Origin: Acidimicrobiia bacterium
GTDB lineage: Bacteria; Actinomycetota; Acidimicrobiia; Spongiisociales; ZC4RG35
Assembly (NCBI GenBank): GCA_012270885.1
Contig: JAAXHN010000043.1
Span: 1 to 56,771 of the forward strand
Length of the DNA: 56,771 bases
Direction of reading: 5' to 3'
The notes under the pieces were generated by a model. The model saw nothing but the letters and a program-made list of their open reading frames with translations. It was not told the DNA's origin and searched no databases. Both the position numbers and the translations under genes were made by a program. Below are positions 36-24,259 of this stretch, in pieces; the first letter of the stretch is position 1, and the number at the start of each line of letters is the position of its first letter.

Positions 36-1340
36 TCAGAAGTCGATCACCGTGATCTCGTCGACCGGCCAGCGGGTAAGGACTTCGGCCCCGTTCTCCC
101 GCACCACGATCATCTCTTCCACTCGCATGCCGTAGCGCCCGTCCGGTTCCTGGGTCTCGACCGCCATGGTCATCCCTTCCAGTATCTCGACAGGATGGTC
201 CACCGAGATCCCTCTCCAGATCAGCGGCCTCTCGTATAGCTGCAGTCCCAGTCCGTGTGCCCACTGGTTGGTGGTCATCTGCCAGTAGTGGTCGGCGCCG
301 TACCAATCCATGTGCTCGCCGTCGCGGTCCGGAAACCGCATGGCCACCTCTCCAGTGGTCACCCCCGGCCGGATCGCCTCGATCACGTCGTACAACCAGT
401 CACGAGCGCGCTGGTAGGCGTCGATGGAACTCTGCTTCGGCTTGCCTATCGAGAATGTTCGGTAGACGCACGACCGATAGCCCTGGAAGGTAGCGCTGTA
501 GAAGTCGGCATACATGATGTCGCCGGGGCGGAGCATCCGATCGGTGGTGTTGGCCTGATGCTTGGGCCAGGTGTTCGGGCCGCTGGTGAGATACCCTCCC
601 TCCACCGTTCCCCCCCTGCGCAGTACCGCTTCCACCGCCGCTCCCCAAACCTCCTGTTCGAGCATGCCCGGCTCTGCAGTTTTCTTGATCGCCATGAAGC
701 CGGCCTCACAGATCGCCGAGAGGACCCGGAAACACTCGATCTCGTCCTTCGTCTTGGTCTGGCGAGCGGTGTGCAGGGCATCGGCGGCGCCCGCCCGGAC
801 ATCCAGACCCCGTTCCCGGAGTTTGGCGGCCAAGGCCGACTGGGTGGAATCGATGCCCACCGGATCGCGATGAACGTCGTAGTCGTGGGCAGCCTCGACG
901 ATCAGGTCCGCCATGGTGTTGAGCAGGAACTCCCGGGCCGAGGGCGACCCGCTGGCGCGGGGCACGTTCCCCAGTCCGGGTGCCGCATAGCGAATATCGG
1001 GCAGCCAGGGGCAGTTGGCTCGCTCGTTGCTGGCATGATCGGCTGTGTCCCAATGCACGACGTCCCCCCCGGCGGTGAGAAAGCTGTAGTGATCGGCGCC
1101 CGAACCGCCCAGCATTGCCAGTCCGGTGACGTACCGAATGTTGGGATCGTCCAACAGGAGCACCGAGCCCAGCCCGGCCTCGGCGATGTGATGCTGAGCC
1201 CGCGCTTTGCGTTGGTCGCGCATCCGGGCCATGTTGATTCGTTCCTCCCAGTCCACGGCCATGGTCCCCAAGGTGCCTTCCATGTATGTCGGCTCGTAAA
1301 GGCTCATCGTGTCCCTTTCGTTGTTTGTTGCAGGTGTCAT
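36..1340 (-). CDS. M24 family (Xaa-Pro peptidase/creatinase/DddP-like) metalloenzyme
   Basis: N-terminal DPNIRYVTG. Pita-bread-fold motifs ADF, HGLGL..YE, AVET, RVEE. ATGA overlap with the E2 stop at 1337-1340. Alternative ATG at 1307 with an AAAGGGAC SD. Confidence 0.85.
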   Translation of the reverse strand: MTPATNNERDTMSLYEPTYMEGTLGTMAVDWEERINMARMRDQRKARAQHHIAEAGLGSVLLLDDPNIRYVTGLAMLGGSGADHYSFLTAGGDVVHWDTADHASNERANCPWLPDIRYAAPGLGNVPRASGSPSAREFLLNTMADLIVEAAHDYDVHRDPVGIDSTQSALAAKLRERGLDVRAGAADALHTARQTKTKDEIECFRVLSAICEAGFMAIKKTAEPGMLEQEVWGAAVEAVLRRGGTVEGGYLTSGPNTWPKHQANTTDRMLRPGDIMYADFYSATFQGYRSCVYRTFSIGKPKQSSIDAYQRARDWLYDVIEAIRPGVTTGEVAMRFPDRDGEHMDWYGADHYWQMTTNQWAHGLGLQLYERPLIWRGISVDHPVEILEGMTMAVETQEPDGRYGMRVEEMIVVRENGAEVLTRWPVDEITVIDF

Positions 1341-2488
1341 TTCTCTCCCAAGGATTGGAGTCGGTTGACAATAACCTGGAGAAATCTTGCTCCCTCCATG
1401 CCGTCGAAAACCCGGTGGTCCCCAGTCAGCGTCAGCCGCACCGTGGGCGCCGCCACCAGAGCGCCATCCACGACCATGGGCCTGGGCTTCACCGCGCCTA
1501 CCGCCAGGATGCCTGCCTCCGGAGGGTTTACCAGAGCGATGAATTCGTCCACGCCGGCCCCACCGAGATTCGAGACGGTGAAGGTTCCGCCCTGCAGATC
1601 TTCGGGATGCAAGCGACCGCCGCGGGCCGCCCTCTCTAATCGGCGCCGCTGAATGGATATTTGCCCCGGCGAGAGGGAGGCGGCGTCCTGGATCACCGGC
1701 ACGATCAAACCGTCTTCAATCGCCACCGCAAACCCGAGATTGACCTTCGGATGGGATCGGACCGTGGGCGGATTGCCTTCAATCCAACTGGAGTTGACCG
1801 ACGGCCTTTCCGCTAAAGCCCCGGCCGTGGCCCAAAGCAACAGGTCCGTATAGGTCACCTTCGGCCCCTCTCCCGGATCCTCGGGCCTCTCAAGGATGAC
1901 TTCTCTTACCAACTGGAATTGGGGAACCGCCGCCGACTTCGACATTCGGGCAGCAATCCGAAGCCGCATTCGAGACAGTTCATCGGGGTCCCCCGAGGAG
2001 GCTTGTACAGTCTGGTGGGCCCTCACCACGTCATTTTCGGTGATCCGCCCCCTCGGACCCGTACCCTCCACTCCGGCCAGATCGACTCCCAGTTCCCTTG
2101 CCCGGCGGCGGGCCAGGGGCGAAACCGGCTTCCGTCCTCCCGGCCTCGGCCGGGTCCTTAGGATGGCGGCCTCCGGGGTGGAGGTCTTCTTGGGCTGCGG
2201 CGCCTTCTCACCCGAAGCGGGGGCCGACTCCGGTGAAGGAGGCTTGGCCGTGGGATCATCCGCGATCCATGCGATCGGCTCTCCCGTAGCCAGGGTCGAC
2301 CCCGCATCGGCCAGGACCGCCACCAGGTATCCGCCTGCGGGCGACTCGAAGGCCACCTCTGCCTTGTCGGTCTCGATCACCGCCAGGATTTCCCCCTCCT
2401 GGACCTGGTCACCCAGCGACTTGGCCCACTCCACGAGAGTTCCCTCTTCCATGTCCTGTCCCAATCGGGGCATCTTCACCAGTCGCAT
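1337..2488 (-). CDS. Dihydrolipoamide acyltransferase (E2) of a 2-oxoacid/acetoin dehydrogenase complex
   Basis: Lipoyl motif ETDKA, peripheral-subunit-binding domain SPLARRRA..GTGP.GRIT..DV, catalytic DHRVFDG. Confidence 0.95.
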   Translation of the reverse strand: MRLVKMPRLGQDMEEGTLVEWAKSLGDQVQEGEILAVIETDKAEVAFESPAGGYLVAVLADAGSTLATGEPIAWIADDPTAKPPSPESAPASGEKAPQPKKTSTPEAAILRTRPRPGGRKPVSPLARRRARELGVDLAGVEGTGPRGRITENDVVRAHQTVQASSGDPDELSRMRLRIAARMSKSAAVPQFQLVREVILERPEDPGEGPKVTYTDLLLWATAGALAERPSVNSSWIEGNPPTVRSHPKVNLGFAVAIEDGLIVPVIQDAASLSPGQISIQRRRLERAARGGRLHPEDLQGGTFTVSNLGGAGVDEFIALVNPPEAGILAVGAVKPRPMVVDGALVAAPTVRLTLTGDHRVFDGMEGARFLQVIVNRLQSLGEK

Positions 2489-2521
2489 GTCCTGCCTTCT
2501 TTCCCTACCACACCGTCGCGG

Positions 2522-3274
2522 TCAATGTAGTGTCCAACCGCCGTCGGAGGTGACTATCGCTCCCGTGACGAAGCTGGGGTCATCGGAGGCCAGGAAGGCT
2601 ATTACTGCGGCTATCTCCTCAGGCTCACCGTGGCGGCCCATGGGCGTGCCGGACAGCATCTCCGACCAACTCTCCGGATCCTCCCGCAGGTCGGCGTTCA
2701 TGCCGGTGGCGATTACTCCCGGAGAGACCGCGTTGACGCGGATCCCGTAAGGCGCGGTCTCGAATCCCACCGAGCGGGTGAGCATGGTGATCGCTCCCTT
2801 GGAGGCAGTGTAAGCGACATGCCCGCGTCCGGGAAGCACCGCCTCGATGGAAGCCACGTTCACTATTGCGCCCTGGATTCCGGCCTCGATCATAGATGCG
2901 ACCACATCTCTGGACAGAATGAACGGCGCCTTCAGGTTTACGTCGAAGGTCAGGTCCCAGGCCTCCCTCGAATGAGACAGGATGGGTTCGCGGATCAGGA
3001 TGGCCGCTGCGTTGACCAGGATGTGGATCCGGTTGTCCCAGTGTGCCAAGGCAGCGGCCACCACCTCCTGGCACGACGAGCCAAGGCTCAGATCGGCGGT
3101 GAATCCGACATGTCCTTCGCCCAACGTGCTGACCACTCTCGCCAAGCCCTCCTCATCCCGATCCACACAGAAGAGATTGGCGCCGTCGGTGGCCAGCCTG
3201 ATGGCGGTGGCTTTCCCGATCCCCGAGGCGACCCCGGTGACGATGGCGTTCTTCCCCGAAAGCTTCCCCCTCAT
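2522..3274 (-). CDS. SDR family oxidoreductase
   Basis: TGVASGIG Rossmann motif, YTASK catalytic motif, IRVNAVSPG. Confidence 0.95.
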   Translation of the reverse strand: MRGKLSGKNAIVTGVASGIGKATAIRLATDGANLFCVDRDEEGLARVVSTLGEGHVGFTADLSLGSSCQEVVAAALAHWDNRIHILVNAAAILIREPILSHSREAWDLTFDVNLKAPFILSRDVVASMIEAGIQGAIVNVASIEAVLPGRGHVAYTASKGAITMLTRSVGFETAPYGIRVNAVSPGVIATGMNADLREDPESWSEMLSGTPMGRHGEPEEIAAVIAFLASDDPSFVTGAIVTSDGGWTLH

Positions 3275-4020
3275 TGCAGCATGTACCCCCCATCGGCATA
3301 CAGCGCCGTGCCGGTCACGAACGCCGCGTCATCGCTCAACAGGAAGAAGACACAGGCGCCGATGTCCTCCGGTCTCCCGAGACGGCCGATCGGCATCAGT
3401 TTCGGCGCCTCCTGCCGGTAGACATCGGGTGTCATCTCGGTGTCGACCGAACCGGGACTGACCGCATTCACCCGAATCCCCAGCGGCCCCCACTCCAGAG
3501 CCAGGACCTTGGTCATGGAGAGGAGTCCTCCCTTGGAGCAGGCGTAGGGGACCTGCTCGGGATAGGCGATGGTGTCCTCCGCCGAACTGATGTTGACGAT
3601 CGCCCCTGCCTGACCGTTCTCGACCCAGTAGTTCGCCGCGGCTTGGCACAGGAAGAAGGGAGCGGTGAGATTGGTGGCGATCGTCTCATCGAGGGTGGCC
3701 TCGGACTGTGTCCAGAAGGGAGCAAAGACATTGACGGCCGCGTTGTTGACCAGCCCATCCAGGCGACCGAATCGATCGATGGCCGTCTCAACCAGCACGG
3801 GTGGAGTGTCCGGATCCTTGAGGTCCGCCACCACAATTGCCGCCGAGCCTCCGGCCTGCTCCACCAGTTGTCCGATCACCTCCAGATCCTTCCGCGTGCG
3901 GGAAGTGATGACCAGGTCGTATCCTCGCTCGGCCAGGGTGGTTGCGATCCCCTTGCCGATCCCCCTACCCGCCCCGGTGAGGATGGCGGCCTTCCTTCCT
4001 GACCGGTCGGCGCCGGTCAT
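3271..4020 (-). CDS. SDR family oxidoreductase
   Basis: TGAGRGIG, NNAA, YACSK. Start moved to ATG 4020, which gives an ATGA overlap with the aminotransferase stop; the ORF-track extension to 4137 overlaps the upstream gene. Confidence 0.93.
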   Translation of the reverse strand: MTGADRSGRKAAILTGAGRGIGKGIATTLAERGYDLVITSRTRKDLEVIGQLVEQAGGSAAIVVADLKDPDTPPVLVETAIDRFGRLDGLVNNAAVNVFAPFWTQSEATLDETIATNLTAPFFLCQAAANYWVENGQAGAIVNISSAEDTIAYPEQVPYACSKGGLLSMTKVLALEWGPLGIRVNAVSPGSVDTEMTPDVYRQEAPKLMPIGRLGRPEDIGACVFFLLSDDAAFVTGTALYADGGYMLQ

Positions 4021-5372
4021 GACGCCATCTCCAGCACCGTCTCCAAACCCGAGGCGGACCGGTCGACGTCCGACTCGGTGTGGCCGTAGGCCACCACCCC
4101 GGGGTGGACGGGCGGCCACAGGATCCCGTGTGCGCACAGGCCGAGCAGCACCGCACTCAGCAGGGCGAGGTCCCCGGCCAGGATCTCCCTCCGGTTGCGG
4201 GGAGGGGCTTCGGTGAAATGCAGTTGGAAGATGGAGCCCAACCCGGTCATGTGACCCAGTCCGTGGGAGTCGAGCACCTCTTGGAGGGTGGAGCGCAACC
4301 TGCCGCCCAGCCAGTCGATGTGTTCGAGCACCGGCTCCCTTTCAAGGACGTCAAGGACGGCCATTCCCGCCGCCAGGGAGACGGGGTTTCCGGTGAAGGT
4401 CCCGGAGTGGAAGATGTGGCTGCCCCGCGCATGGGCCGAAGCGCCCAGAACGGCTTCCATGATGTCGGCTCGTCCACCCACCGCCGATAACGGCAGACCC
4501 CCTCCGATGGCTTTCCCGATGCAGGACAGATCCGGCGTCACCCCCAGATATCCGGGAGCGCCGGCGGTCCCCAGACGCAGGCCGGTCACCACCTCGTCGA
4601 AGATCAACACGATCCCATGTTGGGCGGTGATGTCCCGGACCGCCCGGGCGAAGTGACGATCGGCGGCCACCGCCCCACCGCTGGAGAAAGCCACCGGCTC
4701 CATCACCACCGCGGCCAGGTCGGAGGCGTTCTCGGAGATGAGAGCCACCGCACCTTCGACATCGTTGTAGGGGAGCAACACGGTCTCGTCCCGGATGCGG
4801 TCGGGAATCCCGGCCGAGTCGGGGACCGGCCGGGGGCGGTGGGGAGGTCCCGCCACCTCCCGTGAGACCGAGGACAGGAGAAAGTAGTCGTCTGAACCGT
4901 GATAGTTGCCCTCGAACTTGGCATAGCGCACCCGGCCGGTTGCCGCCCGGGCGGCGCGCAGGGCGGTGCGAACCGCCTCGGAACCCGTGTTGGCAAACCG
5001 GAGACGTTCCAGATACGGCATCAGCCCTCGAAGTCGCTCGGCAAACTTCCGTTCCAGGGGAGCCGGCGCCAGGACAGTAGCCATCCGGCCGATCTGATCC
5101 CGCACCGCCGCCACCACGGAAGGATGGGAGTGGCCCAACAAGGATGACCCGGCGCCCATCAGAAGATCGACATAGTCGTTTCCGTCCACATCCGTAACAT
5201 GCCCCCCTGACCCGGCAGCCAGCACCACCGGGTACGGATCGTAGAACTTGGCGGCTCCCGAGACCCCCATGGGCAGGATCCCCTTGCTCTCCTCCCACAC
5301 CGCCCGGGAACCCGGAGTGCGATCCCGGTAGAGGGCTTCGACCTTCCGAGCCAGGGGTCCGGCGTCTTTCAC
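4017..5372 (-). CDS. Class III PLP aminotransferase (glutamate-1-semialdehyde aminomutase-like), copy 1
   Basis: DVDGN.YVD, NTGSEA, FEGNYHG, FDEVVTG, GKAIGGG (PLP lysine), HSGTF.GNP. Confidence 0.93.
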   Translation of the reverse strand: MKDAGPLARKVEALYRDRTPGSRAVWEESKGILPMGVSGAAKFYDPYPVVLAAGSGGHVTDVDGNDYVDLLMGAGSSLLGHSHPSVVAAVRDQIGRMATVLAPAPLERKFAERLRGLMPYLERLRFANTGSEAVRTALRAARAATGRVRYAKFEGNYHGSDDYFLLSSVSREVAGPPHRPRPVPDSAGIPDRIRDETVLLPYNDVEGAVALISENASDLAAVVMEPVAFSSGGAVAADRHFARAVRDITAQHGIVLIFDEVVTGLRLGTAGAPGYLGVTPDLSCIGKAIGGGLPLSAVGGRADIMEAVLGASAHARGSHIFHSGTFTGNPVSLAAGMAVLDVLEREPVLEHIDWLGGRLRSTLQEVLDSHGLGHMTGLGSIFQLHFTEAPPRNRREILAGDLALLSAVLLGLCAHGILWPPVHPGVVAYGHTESDVDRSASGLETVLEMAS

Positions 5373-7138
5373 CTTCGGTCCTCCCTCAGAGTCTCCCGGC
5401 GGGCATCAGTTCCCTCCTGGTCCGGAGCGCCCTCGGAGTCCAGCACCACCCCGTAATCCTCGAAAGCGCTCCGGCGGGAAACGTATTCGTACTCGACATC
5501 GCGGGCCACCGCCGCCGGATCCCGATCCAACGGATCGCCATATCCACCACCCCCCGCCGTCTCCTGGTTGACCACCTGGTCGCGCTCCAGGGGGACCATC
5601 GACTTCTTGGCGCCGAACTCGGGAGCGGCCAGCCGTTCGGCGGGCGTGCCCGCATCGATCCTGTAACGGGCCGGCGCGCCATGGTGGCCGCCGAACAGAC
5701 CGTAGGGTGGGACTCTTACCCGGTTGCCCAGCACCGACAACTCCCCGGTGGGGGCAAGCAGCCGGTAGTCGCGTCGCACCGACAGCCCGCCCCTCCATTG
5801 ACCGGGACCTCCCGAGTCCTGACGGAGCTCGTACCGGTCGATGCGAAGCGGGTACCTCATCTCGATCGCCTCCACCGGAAGATTCCAGGTGTTGCCGACT
5901 ATCGAATAGATGGCGCTCTGGCCGTCCCGGCCTTCGGCCCCGCCCCATCCCCCTTCGGGATACTCATAGAGGACGAACCGCTCCCCGTCCTCGCCGAAGC
6001 CGCTCAGGAACAGATTGTTGGACGATCCCTGGTCGGCGGCCATCAATCGGACCGGATTGGGGATGTCCCGAGGGATCTCCGCCAGCGCCCGGTAAACCGC
6101 GTTGTGGATCACCGAGACGATCTCGTTGCCACCCGTGCAGGCAGCCGGGAAGATGGGATTGACGATCGTGCCCTCCGGGGCGATGATCTCCACCGGCCGG
6201 TAGCACCCCCCATTGGGCGGGATGGTGGGATCGGTGGCAGCCTGGATGGTCATGTATACACCCGAGGCGGTGTAGCCCAGGACACTGTTCAGGGGGCCCT
6301 CCACCTGCGCGTCGGTGCCGCTGAAGTCCACCACCACCCCGTCACCCCGAACCTTTACCGTCACCCTGACCGTGCGGGGGACGTCGGTAATCCCGTCGTT
6401 GTCCATGGAGTCCTCGGCGTAGTAGTCGCCGTCGGGCCACCCGGCGATCGCCGCGCGGATCCGGCGTTCGGAGTTGTCCATCTCGATCGCCATGCACTGC
6501 TCCACGGTCTCCAATCCGTACCGCTCCACCAACTCGATCAGCCGGCGGCGGGCGGTGAGGTTGGCCGATACCTGGCTCAGGAGATCCGACCGCATGTTCT
6601 CGGGGAGCCGCACGTTGGCCAGGATCATCTGCATGATCTCCTCGTCGATCTCCCCCTCCTTGATCAGCCTCACCGGCGGGATCCGTAGGCCCTCCTGGTA
6701 GTTCTCCCGAGCCTGGGCGTAGAAACTCCCTGGCACCGTTCCCCCCACATCCAGGTGGTGAGCCCGATTGGCTCCCCATCCGATCAGTCTCCCCTCAAAG
6801 AAAATGGGAGTCACCATCGTCACATCCGGGAGATGAGACCCGCCCCGGAAGGGATCGTTGAGAATGATGGAGTCTCCCGGCCGGAACCGGTCGGCGCCCA
6901 CCTCGTCGATGGAGTAGTTCACCGAATAGGGGAGGGAACCCAGATGGATGGGCAGGAACTCCCCGTGACTCACCAACTCGGTCTGAGCGTTGAACATCCC
7001 ACATGAGTAGTCGTTCCCCTCGTTGAAGATGGTGGAACTTGACGTCTGGCGCATGGTGATGCCCATCTCCCTGGCGCCGGCGGCCAGCCCGCTGGTCACC
7101 ACCTCGACGGTGACCTGATCAACCTGGGGGCCGCTCAT
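5369..7138 (-). CDS. Hydantoinase B/oxoprolinase subunit, copy 1
   Basis: PIHLGS, NDPFRGGSHLPD, HHLDVGG, DSGGPG.WRGG, TAGGGGYGDP. Confidence 0.95.
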   Translation of the reverse strand: MSGPQVDQVTVEVVTSGLAAGAREMGITMRQTSSSTIFNEGNDYSCGMFNAQTELVSHGEFLPIHLGSLPYSVNYSIDEVGADRFRPGDSIILNDPFRGGSHLPDVTMVTPIFFEGRLIGWGANRAHHLDVGGTVPGSFYAQARENYQEGLRIPPVRLIKEGEIDEEIMQMILANVRLPENMRSDLLSQVSANLTARRRLIELVERYGLETVEQCMAIEMDNSERRIRAAIAGWPDGDYYAEDSMDNDGITDVPRTVRVTVKVRGDGVVVDFSGTDAQVEGPLNSVLGYTASGVYMTIQAATDPTIPPNGGCYRPVEIIAPEGTIVNPIFPAACTGGNEIVSVIHNAVYRALAEIPRDIPNPVRLMAADQGSSNNLFLSGFGEDGERFVLYEYPEGGWGGAEGRDGQSAIYSIVGNTWNLPVEAIEMRYPLRIDRYELRQDSGGPGQWRGGLSVRRDYRLLAPTGELSVLGNRVRVPPYGLFGGHHGAPARYRIDAGTPAERLAAPEFGAKKSMVPLERDQVVNQETAGGGGYGDPLDRDPAAVARDVEYEYVSRRSAFEDYGVVLDSEGAPDQEGTDARRETLREDRR

Positions 7139-9165: not shown

Positions 9166-10154
9166 TCCGAGTACTCCGCAAGGTCGAGACTCTCCCGGAT
9201 CCGCCTGGCGATCAGGCGCTCGTCCGAGATCATGGCCGCTTCCAGTTCCCGGGCGAAGGGAATCGGAGTTGCCTTGCTACCGGCGCGAAGGGGCGGCGCA
9301 TCCAGCTCGTCGAACCCCTCGGCCACCACCCTGGCGACCAACTCCCCAGCCCAGCCACCCCTCTCCACGGCTTCGTGGGCCACGACCAATCGATGGGTGC
9401 GGGAGAGAGACTCCAGGACGATCTCGACATCCATGGGCACCAGGGTCCTCAGGTCGATCACCTCGACCGAGACGCCCTCTTCCTCCATCTCGAGAGCAGC
9501 CGCCAGGGCCTGATGGACGGATTTGCCCACCGCGGCCACGGTGACGTCTTCCCCCCGGCGCCTGACCACTCCCTGTCCGAGCGGGATGGGTGCCACCGGG
9601 TCGGGTACCGGTCCCGTGGTCCTGTAAAGAGCCCGATGCTCGACGAACAGCACCGGGTGCTCCAGTTCCACTGAGGTCTTGAAGAGGCCCTTGACGTCCT
9701 GGGGTGTGGAGGGCACCGCCACCGCCAGCCCGGGGACGTGCAGGAACCAACTCTCCAGGGTCTGGGAGTGCTGCGAGCCGTGGTGGGTGCCAGATCCCCC
9801 CTGGGTCCTGATGACCATCGGCGCCCGCAACTGGTCACCGGACATGTAGCGCATCTTGGCGGCGTGATTCACGATGGCGTCCATGCCGCAGGCAACGAAG
9901 TCCATGAACATGACCTCGACGATGGGCCGCATCCCCGTCACCGCCGCTCCCACCCCCGCGCCGAGCATCGACTGCTCGGCAATCGGCATGTCGCGAACCC
10001 GGTGACCACCGAATCGGCGAACGAAGTCCTGGGTGGCTCGGAACACCCCTCCGTAGGAACCGATCTCCTGTCCCATGATGAACACCCGGTCGTCTGACGC
10101 CAGGGCCTCGGCCTGAGCCTCCCGTACCGCCTCGATGAAGGTGATCTCCCGCAT
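9162..10154 (-). CDS. TPP-dependent dehydrogenase E1 beta subunit (pyruvate/acetoin type)
   Basis: DMPIAEQ, EVMFMDF, SQHSQ, IDLRTLVP. Confidence 0.95.
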   Translation of the reverse strand: MREITFIEAVREAQAEALASDDRVFIMGQEIGSYGGVFRATQDFVRRFGGHRVRDMPIAEQSMLGAGVGAAVTGMRPIVEVMFMDFVACGMDAIVNHAAKMRYMSGDQLRAPMVIRTQGGSGTHHGSQHSQTLESWFLHVPGLAVAVPSTPQDVKGLFKTSVELEHPVLFVEHRALYRTTGPVPDPVAPIPLGQGVVRRRGEDVTVAAVGKSVHQALAAALEMEEEGVSVEVIDLRTLVPMDVEIVLESLSRTHRLVVAHEAVERGGWAGELVARVVAEGFDELDAPPLRAGSKATPIPFARELEAAMISDERLIARRIRESLDLAEYSE

Positions 10155-12426: not shown

Positions 12427-12471
12427 TCCGGCCCCAGCCTTCCCGGTCGCAACTCCGTACGGATCAAGCGG

Positions 12472-17728: not shown

Positions 17729-18432
17729 CAGATCCCCAGGTAGGCTCGCCGCACGAGATCGCTCTCGAGCACATCTCGGGTTTCTCCGCTCTCGACCACC
17801 AGACCCGACTCCATCACATAGGCTTTCCGGGCGATCTCCAACGCCAGGAAGGCGTTCTGCTCCACCAGCAACACCGTCAACCCGTGGCGGTTGAGATCGA
17901 GAATGATCTCGGCCAGATGATCCACGATGATGGGGGCCAGGCCCGCCGACGGCTCGTCCAGAAGCAAGAGCCGGGGCTCGGCCATCAGGGCCCTGGCGAT
18001 GGCAAGCATCTGCTGCTCCCCGCCGCTCAGGGTTCCGGCGCGCTGGCGGGCCCGTTCGGAGAGACGCGGGAAGAACTCGAAGGCCCGCTCCAGCCGGCGA
18101 CGGTACTCGTCCTCCTCCTTCACCATGTGGGCGCCCATCTCCAGGTTCTCCAGAACCGTCATAGCGGGGAAGAGCTCCTTGCCCTGCGGCACGTGGCCCA
18201 GGCCCATGCCGACTATCTCGTGAGGTCTGAGGCTGTCGATTCTCTCACCCTCGAAGGAGATCTCGCCGCTCTGGGGTCTGAGCACTCCCGAGACGGTGAG
18301 CAGCAGGGTGGTCTTTCCCGCGCCGTTGGCTCCGATCACCGTCACCAGTTCACCCTCCGGCACGCTGATCGAGACATCGAAGAGCACCTGCACCCGCCCG
18401 TAGGCCACGTTGAGAGTGTTGATCTCAAGCAC
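17728..18432 (-). CDS. livF: HAAT-family ABC transporter ATPase
   Basis: GANGAGKT, LSGGEQQM, LLDEPSAGLAP, VEQN. Confidence 0.93.
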   Translation of the reverse strand: MLEINTLNVAYGRVQVLFDVSISVPEGELVTVIGANGAGKTTLLLTVSGVLRPQSGEISFEGERIDSLRPHEIVGMGLGHVPQGKELFPAMTVLENLEMGAHMVKEEDEYRRRLERAFEFFPRLSERARQRAGTLSGGEQQMLAIARALMAEPRLLLLDEPSAGLAPIIVDHLAEIILDLNRHGLTVLLVEQNAFLALEIARKAYVMESGLVVESGETRDVLESDLVRRAYLGI

Positions 18433-19192
18433 CGCGGCGTTTCCCCAGGTAGGCGGTGATCACATCGGGGTCACCCACTATCTCCTCCGGCGTCCCCTCG
18501 GCGATCTTGGCGCCGAAGTTGAGCACGGTGATCCGTGTGCAGATGTTGGTTATCAGGCGCATGTTGTGCTCCACCAGGAGGACCGTGACCCCCTGGCTGC
18601 GCAGCGTCCTGATCAGGTTCATCAAATAGGCCGCCTCCTCGGGGTTGAGGCCGGTGGCCGGTTCGTCCAGAAGCAGCATCCTGGGCTTGGCAGCCAGGGC
18701 GATGGCTATTTCCAGGTACCGGTGCTCTCCCGCCGAGAGGTCCCGGGCCACCGCTTCGATCCGCTCTTCGAGGCCCACAAAGGCCAGCAACTCCCGCACC
18801 CGGTCCTCGATCTCCGCGCTCTGCTTCCGAAATCTTTTGGATCTGGTCAGCGCCCCCACCAACGATGTGGGGTTGTTGAGATGGCTTCCGTGGAGTACGT
18901 TGTCCCGGACAGTTAGATTCTCGAACAGGGTGGTGATCTGGAAGGTGCGCACCAATCCCAGACGCGCCAGGTCGTGAGGTTGCTCGCCTGTCACCTCGGA
19001 ACCCCGGTACCTCACCATCCCCCGGGTTGGCTTGATGTAACCGGTTATCAGGTTCAGGGCGGTGGTCTTACCGGAACCGTTCGGTCCGATCAAACCCCGG
19101 ATCTCCCCCTCTTCGACAGACAGGTCCAACTCATCCACCGCCGACAGACCGCCGAACATCCTGGTCAGCCCGCTGGTCTCAAGTATCGGCAT
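18425..19192 (-). CDS. livG: HAAT-family ABC transporter ATPase
   Basis: GPNGSGKT, RTFQ, LLDEPATG, VEHNM, VITAYLG. Confidence 0.93.
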   Translation of the reverse strand: MPILETSGLTRMFGGLSAVDELDLSVEEGEIRGLIGPNGSGKTTALNLITGYIKPTRGMVRYRGSEVTGEQPHDLARLGLVRTFQITTLFENLTVRDNVLHGSHLNNPTSLVGALTRSKRFRKQSAEIEDRVRELLAFVGLEERIEAVARDLSAGEHRYLEIAIALAAKPRMLLLDEPATGLNPEEAAYLMNLIRTLRSQGVTVLLVEHNMRLITNICTRITVLNFGAKIAEGTPEEIVGDPDVITAYLGKRRGA

Positions 19193-19194
19193 CC

Positions 19195-20217
19195 CTATCT
19201 CGCCTTCTCTGCTTCCAAAGCAAGATCATCACCCGCCGGGGCGCCGTCCGTGTCTTCATCGTTGCGTCCCCTAATGCGCCCCGCAACCTTCTGCAGGGCA
19301 GGAAAGACACCAATCGGCATGAACAGCACCACCAGCAGCAACACCACACCGAATATCACGAAGCGATATTCCTGCAGAGCCCGCAGCCACTCGCTCACCA
19401 GAACGAAGATCGCCGCACCCATTACCGGCCCCCACAGAGTCCCCGTCCCTCCCACCAGGACAACTATCAAGAAGATGAACATGTAGTCGAGACCCAACAG
19501 ATTCGGGTTTACGAACCGGAAGTGGTGGGCGTACAGGGCTCCGGAGAATCCCACCAGCGCGCAGGCGAAGGAGAATGCGAGAACATAGTATTTGGTGGCC
19601 GCAACACCGATGGACTTGGCGAGGTCCTCGTTTTCGTGAATGCTGCGCACACCTCTCCCGAAGCGGGAGGTTCGCAACCTCGACAAAAGGAACACAATGC
19701 CCAGCAGCAACAGCAGAGCGAAGTAGAAGTAGGCCAACTCCGACCGTATCTCCCAGCCGAACAGACTGGGCGGGGGAACCTGGCGCAGTCCTGACGGACC
19801 GCCGGTGACCGGCCTCCACCGCAGAGCCACCGTCCAGGCCAACACTCCGAAACCCAGGGTGACGATCGCCAGTTCAAGGTTGCGGGTGCGGCGCAGAGCG
19901 ATGTATCCGATCAGGAGACCCACCAGGCCGGCTGCCGCCGGCGCAGCCAGGAACCCTATCCAGGGAGATATCCCGAGATCGAGCGCCAGCTTGGCCGAGA
20001 CATAGGCGCCGAACCCCCAGAAGGCGGCGTGCCCGAAGGAGAACTGCCCCATCTCGCCCATGATGTAATCGAGACTGAGCCCGGCGATCGCATATATCAC
20101 AATCAGGACCAACAGCCCGCGGTTGTAGGTGTTGGTGAACAGGAACAGCGGCACCATCGCAACCGCCAGGAGCAACAAACCGCCCAGCCACCATCCCGGT
20201 GGGATTCTCAACCGCAC
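19195..20217 (-). CDS. livM: HAAT-family ABC transporter permease
   Basis: GQFSFGHAAF, SRFGR..RSIHENE, VGG.GTLWGP; multiple TM helices. Confidence 0.9.
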   Translation of the reverse strand: MRLRIPPGWWLGGLLLLAVAMVPLFLFTNTYNRGLLVLIVIYAIAGLSLDYIMGEMGQFSFGHAAFWGFGAYVSAKLALDLGISPWIGFLAAPAAAGLVGLLIGYIALRRTRNLELAIVTLGFGVLAWTVALRWRPVTGGPSGLRQVPPPSLFGWEIRSELAYFYFALLLLLGIVFLLSRLRTSRFGRGVRSIHENEDLAKSIGVAATKYYVLAFSFACALVGFSGALYAHHFRFVNPNLLGLDYMFIFLIVVLVGGTGTLWGPVMGAAIFVLVSEWLRALQEYRFVIFGVVLLLVVLFMPIGVFPALQKVAGRIRGRNDEDTDGAPAGDDLALEAEKAR

Positions 20218-20218
20218 G

Positions 20219-21082
20219 TCACTTCCTCCCGAACAGGCCCTGGGGGCGCAACAGCAGGACGACGATCATCACCACATACAGGTATCCCTGGCGGTAATAG
20301 GTGGAGACGAACTGGCCGAACAGGGCCTCGGTTATGCCCATGAACAACCCCACCGCCACGGCTCCCGCCACATTCCCCATCCCGGCCACGATCACCACCG
20401 CGAAACCGGTGATGAGCAGAGGTTGTCCCAGGTTGGGAGATGCAGACGAAACCAGGACAATCAACACTCCGGCCAGAGCCGCCAATCCGGATGCGACTAT
20501 CAGGGTGGTGTCATAGACGGCGGTGGTATTGATCCCTATCAGACGGGCGCCCAGCAGGTTCTGACCCGTGGCCCGGGTCTTCTTGCCAAGCTTGGTGAAG
20601 GTGAGCATGAGATACAGCCCCAGGACCGCCGCAAAGCACACCCCTACCAGCAGGAGGCTGGCAGTGGTTACGTACACCCCTCCCACCTGGACAATCTCAT
20701 TGAAGGGCTTCTCCACTCCCTTGGGCCCCGACCCCCACACCACAAGACTGCCATTCAGCAACATGAAACTCAGCGCCACGGTCGAGAGGATCACCACCAA
20801 CTCAGAGTGTCCCAGGAACGGGCGTACCGTGACCCGATTGACCAGAAAGCCGGCCAGAGCCATCACCACCACCACCAGCGCGGCGCCCGCGAAATAGCCC
20901 AATCCCACCAGATCGGTGACCGTGAACAACAGCATGGCGCCCAACATGGTCAACTCACCATGCGCCATGTTGATCACCCTCATGACTCCGAACACCAGGC
21001 TCAACCCGGCAGCGAATATCACGTAGATAGAGCCGTTGAGAAGACCGTTCCAGAGTTGCTGGCCGATCACGTCCCAACTCAT
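20219..21082 (-). CDS. livH: HAAT-family ABC transporter permease
   Basis: GSIY..AAGLSLVFGVMRVINMAHG, TKLGK..RA, C-terminal RPQGLFG. Confidence 0.92.
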   Translation of the reverse strand: MSWDVIGQQLWNGLLNGSIYVIFAAGLSLVFGVMRVINMAHGELTMLGAMLLFTVTDLVGLGYFAGAALVVVVMALAGFLVNRVTVRPFLGHSELVVILSTVALSFMLLNGSLVVWGSGPKGVEKPFNEIVQVGGVYVTTASLLLVGVCFAAVLGLYLMLTFTKLGKKTRATGQNLLGARLIGINTTAVYDTTLIVASGLAALAGVLIVLVSSASPNLGQPLLITGFAVVIVAGMGNVAGAVAVGLFMGITEALFGQFVSTYYRQGYLYVVMIVVLLLRPQGLFGRK

Positions 21083-21137
21083 GCACCGGACCTCACTTGA
21101 CTGCCGACCAGCCCGGGTTGAGATAACCGATTCATGG

Positions 21138-21938
21138 CTAGCCGTAGATCGGGACCCGGTTGTCGAAGCGTATCGCCGATATTTCCCCGCTGATCTTCTC
21201 TGTGAAGGACCTGAGTATCGGGCCGTAAGTGTTCTCCAGTGTTTCGATGTCGGCCCGCGTTGCCAGGGTGGCCACCCCCACGGCTCCGATCACATCGGTC
21301 CCGTGAAAGACCGGAGCGGATACAGATCTCAACCCCTCCGTCAGTTCCTGGTCGTTTAATGCGATCCCTTTGATCCGCGCCTCCTCCAGTTGCTCCCGGT
21401 AGTTATCGGCCCCGGTAACCGTGGTGATCGTCCTTGGCTCGAAGTCCATCTGGTCGAGGACCGCCTCCACGTCGTCGGGCGGCATGGCCGAGAGAATGGC
21501 CTTACCCAAAGAACTCAGATGGGCGGGGAGCCGGCTGCCCACTTGGAGGTTGATGGTGATGATGTCGTCGCGGTGACGTCTAGCCATATAGATGACCTCG
21601 GCGCCCTCCAGGACGCCGTAGTTGACGGCAGTCGCCTCCGGGAGCGCCACGCTGATCTCATCCAGGTAGGGACGGATGTGCTCCACGAACTCCCGAGATT
21701 CAACTGCCGCCACCCCCAGATTCAGGACCTTCTTGGAAGGCCGGTAGAGACGCTCGGTCCTCCTTATGTATCCCAGGTCTTCCAGGACGCCGGTGAGTCG
21801 ATAGACGCTGGCTCGGCTGATCTGGGTGCGGCGCGCGATGTCGGCCACCGAGAGCGCCGGAGCCTTCTCGTCGAAGGCAGCCAGTATCTGCAGACCCTTC
21901 GAGAGAGACCCTGGCGGATGGCTGGGAACGGCAGTCAT
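21138..21938 (-). CDS. IclR family transcriptional regulator (PcaR/PobR-like)
   Basis: SLSKGLQIL, HTH with SRASVYRL, VGSRLPAHLSSLGKAIL, DQEL..GLRSVSAPV. Confidence 0.93.
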   Translation of the reverse strand: MTAVPSHPPGSLSKGLQILAAFDEKAPALSVADIARRTQISRASVYRLTGVLEDLGYIRRTERLYRPSKKVLNLGVAAVESREFVEHIRPYLDEISVALPEATAVNYGVLEGAEVIYMARRHRDDIITINLQVGSRLPAHLSSLGKAILSAMPPDDVEAVLDQMDFEPRTITTVTGADNYREQLEEARIKGIALNDQELTEGLRSVSAPVFHGTDVIGAVGVATLATRADIETLENTYGPILRSFTEKISGEISAIRFDNRVPIYG

Positions 21939-21953
21939 CTGGGACCGCCGGGT

Positions 21954-22283
21954 CTATTCAACACCGAACTCGTCCTCCTCGACGATCACGAACACCGAGT
22001 CCTGGGTCTTGGTGCCCATGAAATTCTTCTCGTCGGCCAGAAGCGTGGCGTACTCGGGTGAGTCGGCCGTGGCCAGGAAGTCCTCCACGCTGTCATACCA
22101 CACCTCGGCCACCCCGTCGCAGGGCGCGACCCGCCCGGGAACCTCCAGAGGTCGACATTGAACGTACCGGCGGACCTTGGGCATGGCCAGCACCAGAGGT
22201 GCATGCACGTTCTTCCAATGTTCATGAAATTGCTGGCTGGTCATGTCGGATCTTCTGTTCAGCAGGGTCACCGTCTTGATCAT
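21954..22283 (-). CDS. EthD family protein (dimeric alpha/beta barrel)
   Basis: F.EHW..VHAPL, RYVQ, DGVAEVWYDS, DEKNF. Confidence 0.88.
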   Translation of the reverse strand: MIKTVTLLNRRSDMTSQQFHEHWKNVHAPLVLAMPKVRRYVQCRPLEVPGRVAPCDGVAEVWYDSVEDFLATADSPEYATLLADEKNFMGTKTQDSVFVIVEEDEFGVE

Positions 22284-22341
22284 CTTCCACTCCTCCTACG
22301 GGCGCGGCGATCAACGGGCGGATGTTGTGGGAAGCAGGTCA

Positions 22342-22740
22342 TCAGTCGTCGTCCACCACCGCCACTGCCTCTATGTCGATCAGGGCGTGGTGAATCAACT
22401 CCGCCACCACCACCGACACCCGGGCAGGCTGTCGGTCGGGGAAGTACCGCGCATAAATCGGCTCGTACCGGTGGTAATGGTCGTGATCGACCAGGTACAC
22501 CCGGGTCAGTACCACATCGCTCATCTTGGCGCCGGCGCGCTCCAGGGCCACCTTGAGGTTCTCGAGAGCCAGTTCCGCCTGCTCCTCCAAGGTCTTCCCA
22601 AGTACTCCGGTGGTCTTGTCCCAGCCCAACTGCCCGGTCACCCAGAGAGTGTTGCCCGCCCGCACCACGTCATTCCACCGACTCTTCGACCCGATGGCCC
22701 GGAAGAGTTCCTCCTCAACCGGTACGAATACTCTCTCCAC
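22342..22740 (-). CDS. RidA/YjgF family imine deaminase-like protein
   Basis: VTGQ, QA..ALENLK..L, PAR (catalytic Arg), IEAVA; AAAGGAGG SD upstream. Confidence 0.9.
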   Translation of the reverse strand: MERVFVPVEEELFRAIGSKSRWNDVVRAGNTLWVTGQLGWDKTTGVLGKTLEEQAELALENLKVALERAGAKMSDVVLTRVYLVDHDHYHRYEPIYARYFPDRQPARVSVVVAELIHHALIDIEAVAVVDDD

Positions 22741-22771
22741 TCGCTTGGGCGCCTCCTTTCTCGGTCAATAG

Positions 22772-22816
22772 GATGTATCGGCCTGGCCCCGGGTGAGGGG
22801 CGCAGACCGATACATC
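22772..22816 (-). terminator. Long intercistronic hairpin downstream of the SBP gene (attenuator or mRNA stabiliser)
   Basis: GATGTATCGG...CCGATACATC arms plus inner CTG/CAG and GCCCC/GGGGC pairs. The one mismatch is a G-U pair on the minus (sense) strand. Confidence 0.65.
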
Positions 22817-22839
22817 AAGTAGTTATGGGAGAGTTGCGT

Positions 22840-24090
22840 CTACCCGGCCAACGGAACGGCGTCCACGGGATGCAGTTCACCACCGGTTGACTGGATGATG
22901 ATCCAGTCGTCAACCAGTCGGAGTCCCTTCTCGTTGAAGCGCAAGGGCTTGCCGCGAGGAGTGACGAACCCATGCTCGTCATTCATCAGGGGAGCAACGG
23001 CCGAATGGTCGGTCGTTCCTGCCGCCTCGATCGCCGCGATCAACTGCAGGGCCGCGGTGTAGCCCAGTTCGGACCACCAGTCGGGTGCATGGCCGAACTC
23101 GGCTTCATATGCCTCGGAGAAGGCTGCCGCTTCGGGGATCGACTCGTCCAGAATCCACCCGGTGGAACTGTAAATGCCTTCGGAGAGATCACCCAGGGCT
23201 TCCACTTCCGGCGGCGTGTACACAACCTCGTTGACCATGATGTCACCCTCATAGCCGATCTCACGGGCGGCCTGGACGGCGTTCACGACCACGTCCTTAC
23301 CCCACAGACCGAGATACAGCAGGTCCGGATCGTTACCGACGCCCTTGGTCACTTCGACCCGGGCTTCGGCGGTCCCGTAGGGGAAGTACACCATGCCGGT
23401 GTACTCGAAGTCCGCCCCGGCCTCTTCGTCGAAGATACGGGTGAACTCATCATGGGTGAGACGCACCCAGTCGGAGTCGACGCCCACACCCTGGACCCGC
23501 TTGTAACCCTGGGAGATCATCCAGCGGGCCAGCACCGACAACGCGTTGCTGTCGGATTGGCTCTGCTTGACAGGAGCGCGGATGTGCACCACACCCTCGT
23601 ATCCCTCTTCGGTTATCAACTCTGACCCGCATGCGGTCACAACCAATGGCATGCTGACCTCGGCCGTGACGTCCTTCATCGCCACGCAGGTGGTGGCGTC
23701 GTTGCCGCCGGCCACTCCGGCCACGCCGTCGGCGATCGCCTTTCTCGCCGATGCCACCGACTCGTCGGCCGAGTAGCCCTCGTCGTAGTGGATTACTTCG
23801 ATCTGGCTTCCCAGTAGTCCTCCGGCCGCGTTCTTTTGCATCACGGCCAACTCGAACCCGTTACGCATGATGTCGCCCAGGCCGCTTGCCACCCCGGAGT
23901 TGAACCAGATGGTGCCCAGCTTGATGGGCTCCGCCGGTTCGGGAGCGGCGGTGGTGGTTGGGGCCGCAGTGGTGGTGGGAGCTGCCGTGGTCTCGGCCGC
24001 TTCTTCTTCTCCGTCACCACAGGCGGTGGCGACGAGAGCCAGGACGGACAGCACTACCAATACTCGTACCCAAGATCTACGTTTACTCAT
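22840..24090 (-). CDS. HAAT-family (LivJ/K-like) ABC substrate-binding lipoprotein
   Basis: Lipobox ATAC, IKLG, NAAGGLLG.QIEVI..D. Start at ATG 24090 with a GGAAGGAG SD; the ORF-track start is 24138. Confidence 0.9.
   Translation of the reverse strand: MSKRRSWVRVLVVLSVLALVATACGDGEEEAAETTAAPTTTAAPTTTAAPEPAEPIKLGTIWFNSGVASGLGDIMRNGFELAVMQKNAAGGLLGSQIEVIHYDEGYSADESVASARKAIADGVAGVAGGNDATTCVAMKDVTAEVSMPLVVTACGSELITEEGYEGVVHIRAPVKQSQSDSNALSVLARWMISQGYKRVQGVGVDSDWVRLTHDEFTRIFDEEAGADFEYTGMVYFPYGTAEARVEVTKGVGNDPDLLYLGLWGKDVVVNAVQAAREIGYEGDIMVNEVVYTPPEVEALGDLSEGIYSSTGWILDESIPEAAAFSEAYEAEFGHAPDWWSELGYTAALQLIAAIEAAGTTDHSAVAPLMNDEHGFVTPRGKPLRFNEKGLRLVDDWIIIQSTGGELHPVDAVPLAG
23942..23995 (-). repeat. 3 x 18-bp imperfect tandem repeat encoding a (E/T)TTAAP linker
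   Basis: Protein reads ETTAAPTTTAAPTTTAAP. Confidence 0.85.
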
Positions 24091-24244
24091 ATACCTGCCT
24101 TCTCCTTCCGGACCCATGCCACCAAAGGGGATGGACATAGGGTCACGCTGCTCTTCTCGTTCTCAGTCAATCTCGAAGGAAATGCCCCACCTGACGCTTC
24201 CAGGCGGGACACTCTCATCGAAATGCCCGTTTACCGGAATCTCT

Positions 24245-24259
24245 ATCCGATATACGGAC
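24245..24259. promoter_or_regulatory. Putative IclR-family operator
   Basis: Palindrome TCCG-ATATA-CGGA (minus strand GTCCGTATATCGGAT) resembles the GTNCG-N5-CGNAC IclR/PcaR/PobR motif. It lies about 155 bp upstream of the first operon gene. Confidence 0.6.

Follow-up and report, generated by a model that had tools for sequence, protein, structure and literature searches.

Contig JAAXHN010000043.1 of an Acidimicrobiia bacterium (assembly GCA_012270885.1), analysed here in its entirety as a window of 56,771 bp (contig C141 of a 2.6-Mb genome in 235 contigs, estimated to be 94% complete), carries at one end a cluster of 21 genes that is real and lineage-restricted and most likely a new version of ATP-dependent lactam catabolism. 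On balance we favour the view that it represents a lineage-specific composite, probably expressed as one IclR-controlled operon, through which one or more imported nitrogen-containing compounds are mineralised. The literature searched (supplements of papers lay outside the search) describes no pathway with this gene set, in agreement with the initial annotation, an earlier reading of this DNA made from the letters alone; nor did it return a paper that mentions Spongiisocius, one on hydantoinases of sponge Acidimicrobiia, or any relevant one that joins EthD, M24 and IclR.

The 21 genes lie consecutively on the minus strand between positions 36 and 24090 (Table 1). The listing of open reading frames (ORFs) and their Pfam assignments reproduce, gene for gene, the order and common orientation given in the initial annotation: a substrate-binding protein (SBP), RidA, EthD and an IclR-family regulator are followed by livHMGF, a first HyuA/HyuB pair with its aminotransferase (AT1), a CoA-transferase, the E1 alpha and E1 beta subunits of a thiamine diphosphate (TPP)-dependent enzyme, a second HyuA/HyuB pair with its aminotransferase (AT2), two short-chain dehydrogenases/reductases (SDRs), an E2 acyltransferase and an M24-family protein. 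The many ATGA and GTGA overlaps that it had noted are equally real; twelve of the 20 junctions overlap, nine of them by 4 nt in ATGA or GTGA, two by 1 nt in TGATG and one by 8 nt, while the remainder comprise two gaps of 1-2 nt and six of 15-99 nt. The livHMGF genes are joined by overlaps or by gaps of 1-2 nt, and Shine-Dalgarno sequences are recognisable before many of the starts. The longest ORF of the SBP would begin at 24138, but an ATG preceded by a Shine-Dalgarno sequence at 24090 is conserved in all four aligned relatives (the orthologue in the genome G001 has 415 aa) and is therefore taken as the real start, which leaves the end coordinate of the initial annotation in place. At the other end the contig stops 35 nt past the M24 stop codon, and the downstream edge of the cluster was consequently taken from relatives. 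Twenty-one co-oriented genes with many coupled junctions and an order that is kept elsewhere go far beyond chance; co-orientation, coupling and conserved order are all found here, which makes a single long operon, repressed by IclR, the probable arrangement.

Table 1. Features of the 21-gene cluster in order of transcription (positions refer to the window)
Feature	Position	Strand	Domains and remarks
Conserved element of about 45 nt	24219-24263	-	about 130 nt upstream of the SBP start; candidate operator
LivK-type SBP, probable lipoprotein with Ala/Pro/Thr linker	22840-24090	-	Peripla_BP_6 (2.4e-53)
Rid-family protein (RidA), imine/enamine deaminase type	22342-22740	-	Ribonuc_L-PSP (1.5e-29)
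EthD-domain protein	21954-22283	-	EthD (6.9e-21)
IclR-family regulator, encoded within the cluster	21138-21938	-	HTH_IclR, IclR_C
LivH 20219-21082, LivM 19195-20217, LivG 18425-19192, LivF 17728-18432	17728-21082	-	ABC permeases (BPD_transp_2, two) and ATPases (ABC ATPase, two)
HyuA1 15668-17728, HyuB1 13824-15671	13824-17728	-	Hydantoinase_A, Hydantoinase_B; ATP-dependent hydantoinase/oxoprolinase type
AT1, HemL-like class III aminotransferase	12472-13827	-	Aminotran_3; ATGA overlap with HyuB1
Family III CoA-transferase, dicarboxylate type	11194-12426	-	CoA_transf_3
E1 alpha 10154-11197, E1 beta 9162-10154	9162-11197	-	E1_dh, Transket_pyr/Transketolase_C; pyruvate/acetoin-dehydrogenase-like TPP enzyme
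HyuA2 7135-9165, HyuB2 5369-7138	5369-9165	-	Hydantoinase_A, Hydantoinase_B; second pair of ATP-dependent hydantoinase/oxoprolinase type
AT2, second HemL-like class III aminotransferase	4017-5372	-	Aminotran_3
SDR1 3271-4020, SDR2 2522-3274	2522-4020	-	adh_short (two); YxxxK in both
E2 acyltransferase	1337-2488	-	lipoyl, E3-binding and catalytic 2-oxoacid_dh domains; TDKA and DHRVFDG motifs
Atypical M24 hydrolase, DddP-like architecture	36-1340	-	Peptidase_M24; ligands D279, C291, H362, E395, E408

A search with the central CoA-transferase as query (one genome per species, 10-kb flanks, followed by a tblastn matrix) returned 80 loci, 15 of which (L003-L015, L076 and L077) keep the same gene order as far as contig or flank reaches, so the synteny check suggested in the initial annotation came out in favour of genes that are conserved together. 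All 15 carriers are metagenome-assembled genomes, most of them labelled Acidimicrobiia or Acidimicrobiaceae, two only 'bacterium' and two Candidatus Spongiisocius, and the identities of their cluster proteins range from 64% (E2) to 98% (LivH and AT1). The other 65 loci hold a CoA-transferase homologue of 44-70% identity and no cluster. In all five relatives for which this was checked separately M24 follows directly after E2 (93-95% identical). A scan of metagenomes with an alignment of HyuB1 yielded only two loci, one (L135) with the same cluster and one (L136) with the variant described below. Among 80 genomes of the same family, representing 38 genera, a HyuB1 orthologue (E <= 1e-150) is confined to the window's genus, where two of the three other members possess it. 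The labels of the sequencing runs that contain this stretch of DNA include coral reef metagenome and, at small shares, sponge metagenome. No RNA run was listed among them, and three RNA runs under the same organism label gave no matching reads, which speaks neither for nor against co-transcription.

The boundaries of the conserved unit emerge from the genomes G003 and G004, in which the 4HBT thioesterase and class I/II aminotransferase genes found upstream in the window are absent, the block from SBP to M24 is retained, and a small ORF of no known family is followed downstream by a convergent trio encoding an alcohol dehydrogenase (ADH), an M24 paralogue and a phosphoenolpyruvate (PEP)-utilising protein. 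Since the block holds where its flanks differ, we take SBP to M24 as the unit. Its proteins are about 70-91% identical between these two genomes and the window, compared with 71-73% for the housekeeping protein PurA, and the block is hence at least as conserved as a core gene; strong selection and lateral transfer both fit these data, which do not separate the two. Single parts can be lost, as illustrated by L013, which lacks AT2, and by L010, in which HyuB1 is internally deleted (roughly residues 196-408).

The upstream region offers a candidate for the control of the whole block. All four aligned upstream regions, including that of G003, whose upstream genes differ, share a nearly invariant stretch of about 45 nt in which the near-palindrome TCCGTATATCGGA, just downstream of a TTGACG-like box, is accompanied by another box, TTCCGG..CGG. 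The near-palindrome and the TTCCGG..CGG box match exactly only at this position in the 2.6-Mb genome, other hits having two to four mismatches, and the element matches no Rfam family. We take it as the putative main promoter-operator, to which the cluster's own IclR regulator may bind; this regulator scores 204 bits on the PcaR/PcaU/PobR subfamily model (cut-off 285).

The proposed chemistry hinges on the two HyuA/HyuB pairs. Each consists of adjacent genes with Hydant_A_N plus Hydantoinase_A and Hydantoinase_B domains, respectively, joined by an ATGA overlap, and at 37% (HyuA) and 34% (HyuB) identity the pairs appear to be old paralogues. According to the account of caprolactamase used here, the A subunits of the superfamily carry the ASKHA ATP motifs DxGGTxxD, DxGGT and GxxPGP, and the caprolactamase subunit CapB has a metal site composed of D41, H99, D102 and H124 (PMC8453981). 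HyuA1 contains the corresponding motifs DIGGTFTD, DIGGTSTD and GAVPGP and HyuA2 DIGGTFTD, DMGGTSCD and GSDPGP, while D43, H102, D105 and H127 of HyuB2 and the equivalent residues of HyuB1 align to the CapB ligands (6yra_B), such that both keep an intact Asp-His-Asp-His tetrad. On the CapA model HyuA1 and HyuA2 reach 452 and 526 bits, on the CapB model HyuB1 and HyuB2 reach 251 and 309 bits, and for both pairs these models outscore those of the carboxylase Apc (322 bits for ApcC and 143 for ApcD with the first pair). Comparison with solved structures yields the same ranking; HyuB2 scores 276 bits with N-methylhydantoinase (7hk5), 265 with caprolactamase (6yra), 151 with acetophenone carboxylase and 97 with acetone carboxylase, and HyuB1 scores 229 and 210 bits with the two hydrolases and 139 and 83 with the carboxylases. 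The first metal ligand of HyuB is Asp, as in CapB, rather than the Glu of acetone carboxylase. Scores that favour hydrolases over carboxylases in this manner suggest a hydrolase-type reaction, that of a lactamase or hydantoinase. Neither pair reaches the CapA and CapB equivalogs NF050156 and NF050157 (cut-off 1000 bits), and we regard them as members of a CapAB-like family that are not caprolactamase orthologues. All 21 ORFs have been assigned, and with no intergenic gap above 99 nt there seems to be no room for the gene of a third subunit; the acetone carboxylase gamma family PF08882 has no hit in the genome, but neither do the control genomes give a signal. Among plasmids the best HyuB1 matches are haloarchaeal (44-46%), and in the two contexts inspected they form a stand-alone HyuA/HyuB pair accompanied by neither aminotransferase nor CoA-transferase.

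A class III aminotransferase gene follows each HyuA/HyuB pair in translational coupling. AT1 and AT2 appear to be HemL-like proteins other than HemL; they score 370 and 312 bits on the hemL equivalog (cut-off 527), and AT1 falls just short on the broader PRK00062 subfamily model (394 bits, cut-off 398). Their pyridoxal phosphate (PLP) motif reads AKTIGGG in AT1 and GKAIGGG in AT2, with the lysine presumably that of the cofactor. The best structural matches of AT1 are glutamate-1-semialdehyde aminomutases (about 300 bits) and the Sphaerobacter transaminase 6K8H (283 bits), and beta-phenylalanine and other beta-transaminases come next (about 210 bits). The enzyme 6K8H is described as converting beta-amino acids as well as the gamma-amino acid 4-aminopentanoate, and relatives of this type fit a lactam substrate because the opening of small lactams would yield amino acids of precisely this kind. 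AT1 and AT2 are about 44-45% identical to one another, and the best match of AT1 outside its own genome does not exceed 43% among 400 sampled Actinomycetota genomes, a tally that includes, and partly rests on, 15 genomes flagged as unpublished. Within this sample the two seem to be each other's closest relatives, which suggests that their substrates are related. A role in haem biosynthesis was rejected on account of the wrong gene context and the scores below cut-off. Plasmids gave only matches of 37-40%, mostly to true hemL. The window's own genome has no gene at the hemL equivalog cut-off; of its four HemL-like genes two belong to the cluster, and the others lie on contigs C102 and C34, the latter flanked by two SDR genes.

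The genes between and beyond these modules would supply the enzymes of a CoA-linked oxidation. The CoA-transferase is most probably of the dicarboxylate (SUGCT/mesaconate) type, seeing that its closest models, succinyl-CoA:mesaconate (307 bits) and succinate-glutarate (295 bits) CoA-transferase, both matched below cut-off, and its best structure, human succinate-hydroxymethylglutarate CoA-transferase (269 bits), are all such enzymes. It overlaps E1 alpha by 4 nt, as E1 beta overlaps the start of HyuA2. A TPP motif in E1 alpha (GDG..NN), an E1 beta and an E2 with lipoyl lysine and DHRxxDG motif together provide the hallmarks of a 2-oxoacid or acetoin dehydrogenase; no E3 occurs among the 21 genes, and a lipoamide dehydrogenase above cut-off is encoded on contig C205. 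The two SDRs are 37% identical, and SDR2 resembles meso-2,3-butanediol dehydrogenase, with 204 bits against a model cut-off of 270. Catalytic motifs are intact in E1 alpha, E2, both aminotransferases and both SDRs. RidA reaches 82.7 bits on TIGR00004 (cut-off 106) and contains a 'PAR' arginine motif, presumably of significance in this family.

The last gene of the cluster encodes a variant of a familiar fold. In the M24 protein Cys291 occupies the position of the second metal-binding Asp and the other four ligands are retained (alignment to 4ege, 4s01 and 1pv9, with the ligand numbering that we assume for 1pv9), a departure from the canonical Asp-Asp-His-Glu-Glu set. Cysteine is found in all 121 aligned sequences (the window's M24 and 120 listed homologues) and in 12 of 12 orthologues and paralogues, the latter including proteins that are about 35% identical, whereas an ordinary M24 protein in L047 has Asp at this position. 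The homologues of Tritonibacter and Paenarthrobacter, the only two checked in the Roseobacter and Paenarthrobacter group, likewise show the D-C-H-E-E set. Members were placed at L083-L092, L136:12390-13652, L137-L142 and L145-L148 besides the window, and they appear to make up a conserved M24 subfamily with an Asp-Cys-His-Glu-Glu site, of which the literature searched contained no description. The protein aligns over its full length to the DddP model with 106 bits (cut-off 600). Creatinase and ectoine hydrolase are M24 members that have C-N bonds as their target, and the cluster protein scores 32 bits on the creatinase model and 33-48 bits on those of ectoine hydrolase. Ectoine degradation was considered and rejected in view of such scores on the DoeA/EutD models and of the absence of DoeB from the cluster.

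Beyond its own clade the nearest relatives of the Cys-M24 protein are haloarchaeal (64-68% identical), and all 27 M24 records at 60-80% identity in a plasmid collection are from haloarchaeal megaplasmids; the paralogues and the Roseobacter and Paenarthrobacter homologues are 30-36% identical. In the neighbourhoods of six haloarchaeal M24 genes EthD lies within 12 kb in five cases, a Liv-type ABC transporter in four, and E1 alpha-beta and IclR in three each. On three of three Roseobacter-group plasmids a Cys-M24 gene (34-36%) forms part of an operon with an SBP, an SDR, E1 alpha and E1 beta, and the same operons also hold a lipoyl protein, an aldehyde dehydrogenase, E2 and, in one case, LpdA. 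The order on a Paenarthrobacter plasmid is RidA, M24, oxidoreductase, SDR, LpdA. A table in a review lists orphan haloarchaeal E1 alpha-beta pairs, including homologous ones of Haloferax volcanii, as pairs to which no substrate has been assigned.

Partial versions of the cluster suggest how it was assembled. The metagenomic variant L136 has livHMGF-HyuA1-HyuB1-AT1 (67-79% identical), a CitE-like acyl-CoA lyase (186 bits on citE, 173 bits on RipC/Ccl) and the CoA-transferase (62%), and continues with a zinc-dependent ADH, an M24 paralogue (87% identical to that on contig C27 of the window's genome) and a PEP-utilising protein; E1, HyuA2B2, AT2, the SDRs, E2 and the cluster-type M24 are all missing. 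Among the 65 non-cluster loci, from Acidimicrobiia and other phyla, 53 have a CitE-like lyase gene immediately upstream of their CoA-transferase homologue (eight of the other 12 have less than 1.6 kb of upstream flank), whereas it occurs in none of the 15 cluster loci and, with the lyase query used, nowhere in the window's genome. Lyase and CoA-transferase form a widespread pair, and this pattern taken with L136 implies that the sponge lineage has retained the transferase while losing the lyase and acquiring a block of ten genes, apparently inserted between the transferase and the trio of ADH, M24 paralogue and PEP-utiliser that now lies inverted downstream. Because neighbours of the Cys-M24/E1/E2 type recur in Roseobacters and haloarchaea, the second half of the cluster would represent a version of a recurring module. 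The cluster as a whole can therefore be described as probably an older core of importer, HyuA1B1, AT1 and CoA-transferase joined to a widespread module of Cys-M24, SDR and E1/E2. The 21-gene operon of the initial annotation holds as regards co-orientation, coupling and order, but as a composite of separately occurring modules and not as an indivisible invention. The Cys variant of M24, the HemL-like character of the aminotransferases and the dicarboxylate type of the CoA-transferase had not been noticed in it.

In the scheme that we favour, the lipoprotein LivK-type SBP and LivHMGF, recognisable at the family level, would import the substrate, and the two distinct HyuA/HyuB enzymes would use ATP to open stable cyclic amide rings of the lactam or hydantoin type. 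The coupled HemL-like aminotransferase would then convert the freed beta-, gamma- or omega-amino group to a carbonyl, with RidA scavenging imine or enamine by-products. The two SDRs would adjust the oxidation state between alcohol and ketone, and E1 alpha-beta and E2, with an E3 encoded elsewhere, would carry out a TPP-dependent oxidative C-C cleavage that yields an acyl-CoA. The dicarboxylate-type CoA-transferase would activate the acid product at the expense of succinyl-CoA, and the Cys-M24 hydrolase and EthD could bring about an additional cleavage at a C-N bond or a rearrangement. The substrates and the sequence of steps are inferred throughout, and the specific activities are derived from families since no protein of the whole cluster reaches any NCBIfam equivalog cut-off.

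That shortfall weighs against the scheme, as do several other observations. The ATP and metal motifs of HyuA and HyuB are common to the lactamases and carboxylases of the superfamily, as the caprolactamase account has it (PMC8453981), and hence indicate competence rather than reaction type. The best match of the SBP to a solved structure has only 62 bits, from which no ligand can be deduced. The 21 genes include no aldehyde dehydrogenase, though the canonical lactam route needs one after the aminotransferase. In the haloarchaeal loci M24 alone is highly similar (62-67%) and its neighbours are just 24-44% identical to the window's proteins, so that the association holds at the family level only, and the occurrence of the modules apart from one another elsewhere implies that each half may have a substrate of its own. 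Scans for promoter and terminator consensus sequences performed at chance level (3 found against 2.9 expected, and 8 against 8.5), although such scans are uninformative for a high-GC actinobacterium. The succession of import, ring opening, transamination and TPP-dependent oxidation put forward in the initial annotation is consequently borne out by motifs and scores at the family level and falls short of proof; its cyclic amide substrate gains from scores that lie nearer to lactamases and hydantoinases and keeps its provisional status. Candidates within that putative class are small gamma- and delta-lactams that bear hydroxyl or amino groups, 5-substituted hydantoins and proline-containing diketopiperazines. 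The last of these are hinted at by the Opp-type transporter, X-Pro dipeptidyl peptidase, amidase, Ldh_2 enzyme and three PTE hydrolases encoded in an insert next to the cluster in G001, and by the betaine-type transporters just upstream in the window.

A less unified picture, unlikely though credible, is that of an island in which two or three catabolic units work independently and share only a promoter or a location. One unit (importer, HyuA1B1, AT1 and CoA-transferase) would turn one lactam into a dicarboxylate handled as its CoA ester, and a second (E1 alpha-beta, HyuA2B2, AT2, the SDRs, E2, M24 and possibly EthD and RidA) would deal with a different compound by a cleavage akin to that of acetoin dehydrogenase. 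L136, with the first unit and not the second, lends this picture weight, as do the lyase found in 53 of 65 non-cluster and 0 of 15 cluster loci, the Cys-M24, SDR and E1/E2 genes that stand by themselves next to other transporters on three of three Roseobacter plasmids, the age of the paralogues (34-44% identity) and the piecemeal losses in L013 and L010. On the other hand, the 21 genes have a single transporter and a single regulator among them, the 4-nt overlaps on either side of E1 interlock the units in translation, the whole block occurs in order in 15 species-level genomes, and the mutual closeness of AT1 and AT2 suggests related substrates.

More doubtful is an extension of the favoured composite operon, in which the hyuA and hyuB genes enriched in sponge symbionts would here be part of a dedicated system for a two-nitrogen heterocycle (for example a hydantoin, diketopiperazine or bis-lactam) derived from the host or the holobiont. 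It would couple two ATP-driven ring openings to HemL-derived aminotransferases and feed a previously unrecognised bacterial-archaeal module of Cys-M24, EthD, SDR and E1/E2 with new chemistry and a new substrate. If true, this would make sense of orphan E1 alpha-beta pairs in haloarchaea as well.

A hydantoin or ureide route, which we consider improbable in its strict form, is a special case of the favoured lactam-type scheme and not a true alternative. HyuAB would produce N-carbamoyl amino acids by opening 5-substituted hydantoins or rings that resemble dihydropyrimidines, M24 would remove the carbamoyl group or act in an amidino-type manner, the aminotransferases would produce 2-oxo acids and E1/E2 would convert these to acyl-CoA, a single line that gives roles to M24, aminotransferases and E1/E2 alike. 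N-methylhydantoinase is indeed the best solved relative of both HyuB proteins, and M24 has matches, albeit weak, to the ectoine hydrolase and creatinase families. Yet these amount to 33-48 and 32 bits, the 21 genes contain neither a canonical carbamoylase nor a hydantoin racemase, and HemL-like aminotransferases are better known for beta, gamma and omega amines than for alpha-amino acids. The creatinine/N-methylhydantoin pathway was rejected, there being no deaminase, carbamoylsarcosine amidase or sarcosine oxidase. Finally, it seems highly improbable that the aminotransferases convert an amine to a ketone which HyuA/HyuB carboxylate to a beta-keto acid for activation by the CoA-transferase; this would be chemically sensible, carboxylases of the superfamily share the ATP and metal motifs and caprolactamase itself is stated to need bicarbonate (PMC8453981), but the scores, the Asp ligand, the apparent lack of space for a third subunit gene and the position of each HyuAB ahead of its aminotransferase in the gene order all speak against it.

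The nearest described systems are the caprolactam pathway of Pseudomonas jessenii (CapA/CapB and a 6-aminohexanoate aminotransferase) and the valerolactam pathway of P. putida (OplBA), in which, as far as the accounts consulted go, an ATP-dependent two-subunit lactamase is likewise followed by a PLP-dependent aminotransferase. The cluster shares the ATP motifs and metal tetrad of caprolactamase, but its scores of 251-526 bits lie far under the 1000-bit cut-offs for CapA and CapB. It differs from both pathways in its two diverged lactamase-aminotransferase modules, its HemL-like aminotransferases and the lack of an aldehyde dehydrogenase, and it adds E1/E2, SDRs, a CoA-transferase, Cys-M24, EthD, RidA and a dedicated Liv-type importer. 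With the AcoABC(L) acetoin/2,3-butanediol system and heterotetrameric pyruvate dehydrogenase E1 it has in common an E1 alpha with TPP motif, E1 beta, a lipoylated E2 and a butanediol-dehydrogenase-like SDR; in contrast to the acetoin system all models are matched below cut-off, no E3 is present and the genes are embedded among those for lactamases and aminotransferases. The plasmid operons of Phaeobacter inhibens, Tritonibacter mobilis and Rhodobacteraceae SC52, for which the searches returned no characterisation, resemble it in placing Cys-M24 beside an SDR, E1 alpha-beta and E2, but they lack HyuAB, class III aminotransferase and CoA-transferase, include an aldehyde dehydrogenase and adjoin sugar-type ABC transporters. 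The pairs of CoA-transferase and CitE-like lyase (itaconate/citramalyl-CoA or malyl-CoA type) have a transferase 57-70% identical to that of the cluster in most of the 65 loci (44-45% in three proteobacterial loci and 51% in one from Acidobacteria), and differ from it by the lyase that all 15 cluster loci lack. In the anaerobic indoleacetate (iaa) cluster of Aromatoleum aromaticum, IaaCE presumably works with a family III CoA-transferase; that system differs in that its aromatic amine product cannot be transaminated and that neither E1/E2 nor M24 is known to be involved. The hydantoinase-like IaaCE is listed as a member of the superfamily (PMC8453981).

In the report consulted, hyuA and hyuB are enriched in sponge symbionts and their function is left without explanation. 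The window's genome has eight Hydantoinase_B loci, and the cluster gives the HyuA/HyuB pairs at two of them a testable metabolic setting with importer, regulator, aminotransferases and CoA-linked oxidation. The Cys-M24 subfamily travels with an acetoin-dehydrogenase-like E1/E2 in Roseobacters, haloarchaea and Acidimicrobiia, some of which can be grown in culture and manipulated genetically, so that its chemistry could be worked out in them. The sources at hand, moreover, present ATP-dependent lactamases and beta/gamma-amino-acid transaminases as biocatalysts of interest in connection with nylon monomers and chiral amino acids.

Other HyuB loci of the genome are situated on contigs C155, C165, C171 and C184 (L100-L103). 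C155 has one HyuA followed by three tandem HyuB, C171 a pair behind a Dpp/Opp-type transporter, and C184 a HyuAB pair split into pieces (frameshifts or assembly errors) beside mutase, acyl-CoA ligase and P450 genes.

Downstream of the cluster, an ORF of about 333 aa (unk333) follows M24 in three relatives (L094:395-1396 on the plus strand, L096 at about 220-1215 and L097 at about 18799; 45-49% identical). It matches no Pfam family and did not turn up in the assembly of the window's genome, and it may be a twenty-second member of the cluster. In the closest complete relative an insert of 14.5 kb lies just downstream of the cluster (L094, G001:C1:96000-115999). Its products are an Opp-type ABC transporter, three hydrolases of the PTE family, an amidase, an S15 X-Pro dipeptidyl peptidase, a beta-eliminating lyase, an Ldh_2 enzyme and a GntR regulator; of this insert the window's genome shows only the end, on contig C27, most of it being unassembled.

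Elsewhere in the window, a minus-strand gene at 26739-28823 encodes a protein of 694 aa that combines an OpuAC betaine-binding domain, SBP_bac_3 and ion-channel domains (Ion_trans_2, Lig_chan) and resembles a ligand-gated channel whose head binds osmolytes. It adjoins a BCCT transporter and a second OpuAC protein (29109-31819), an arrangement conserved in G001. The longest ORF for NucS (44913-46418, minus strand) has 501 aa with its domains beginning at residue 278, so that either the N-terminus is much extended or the start was called too far upstream.

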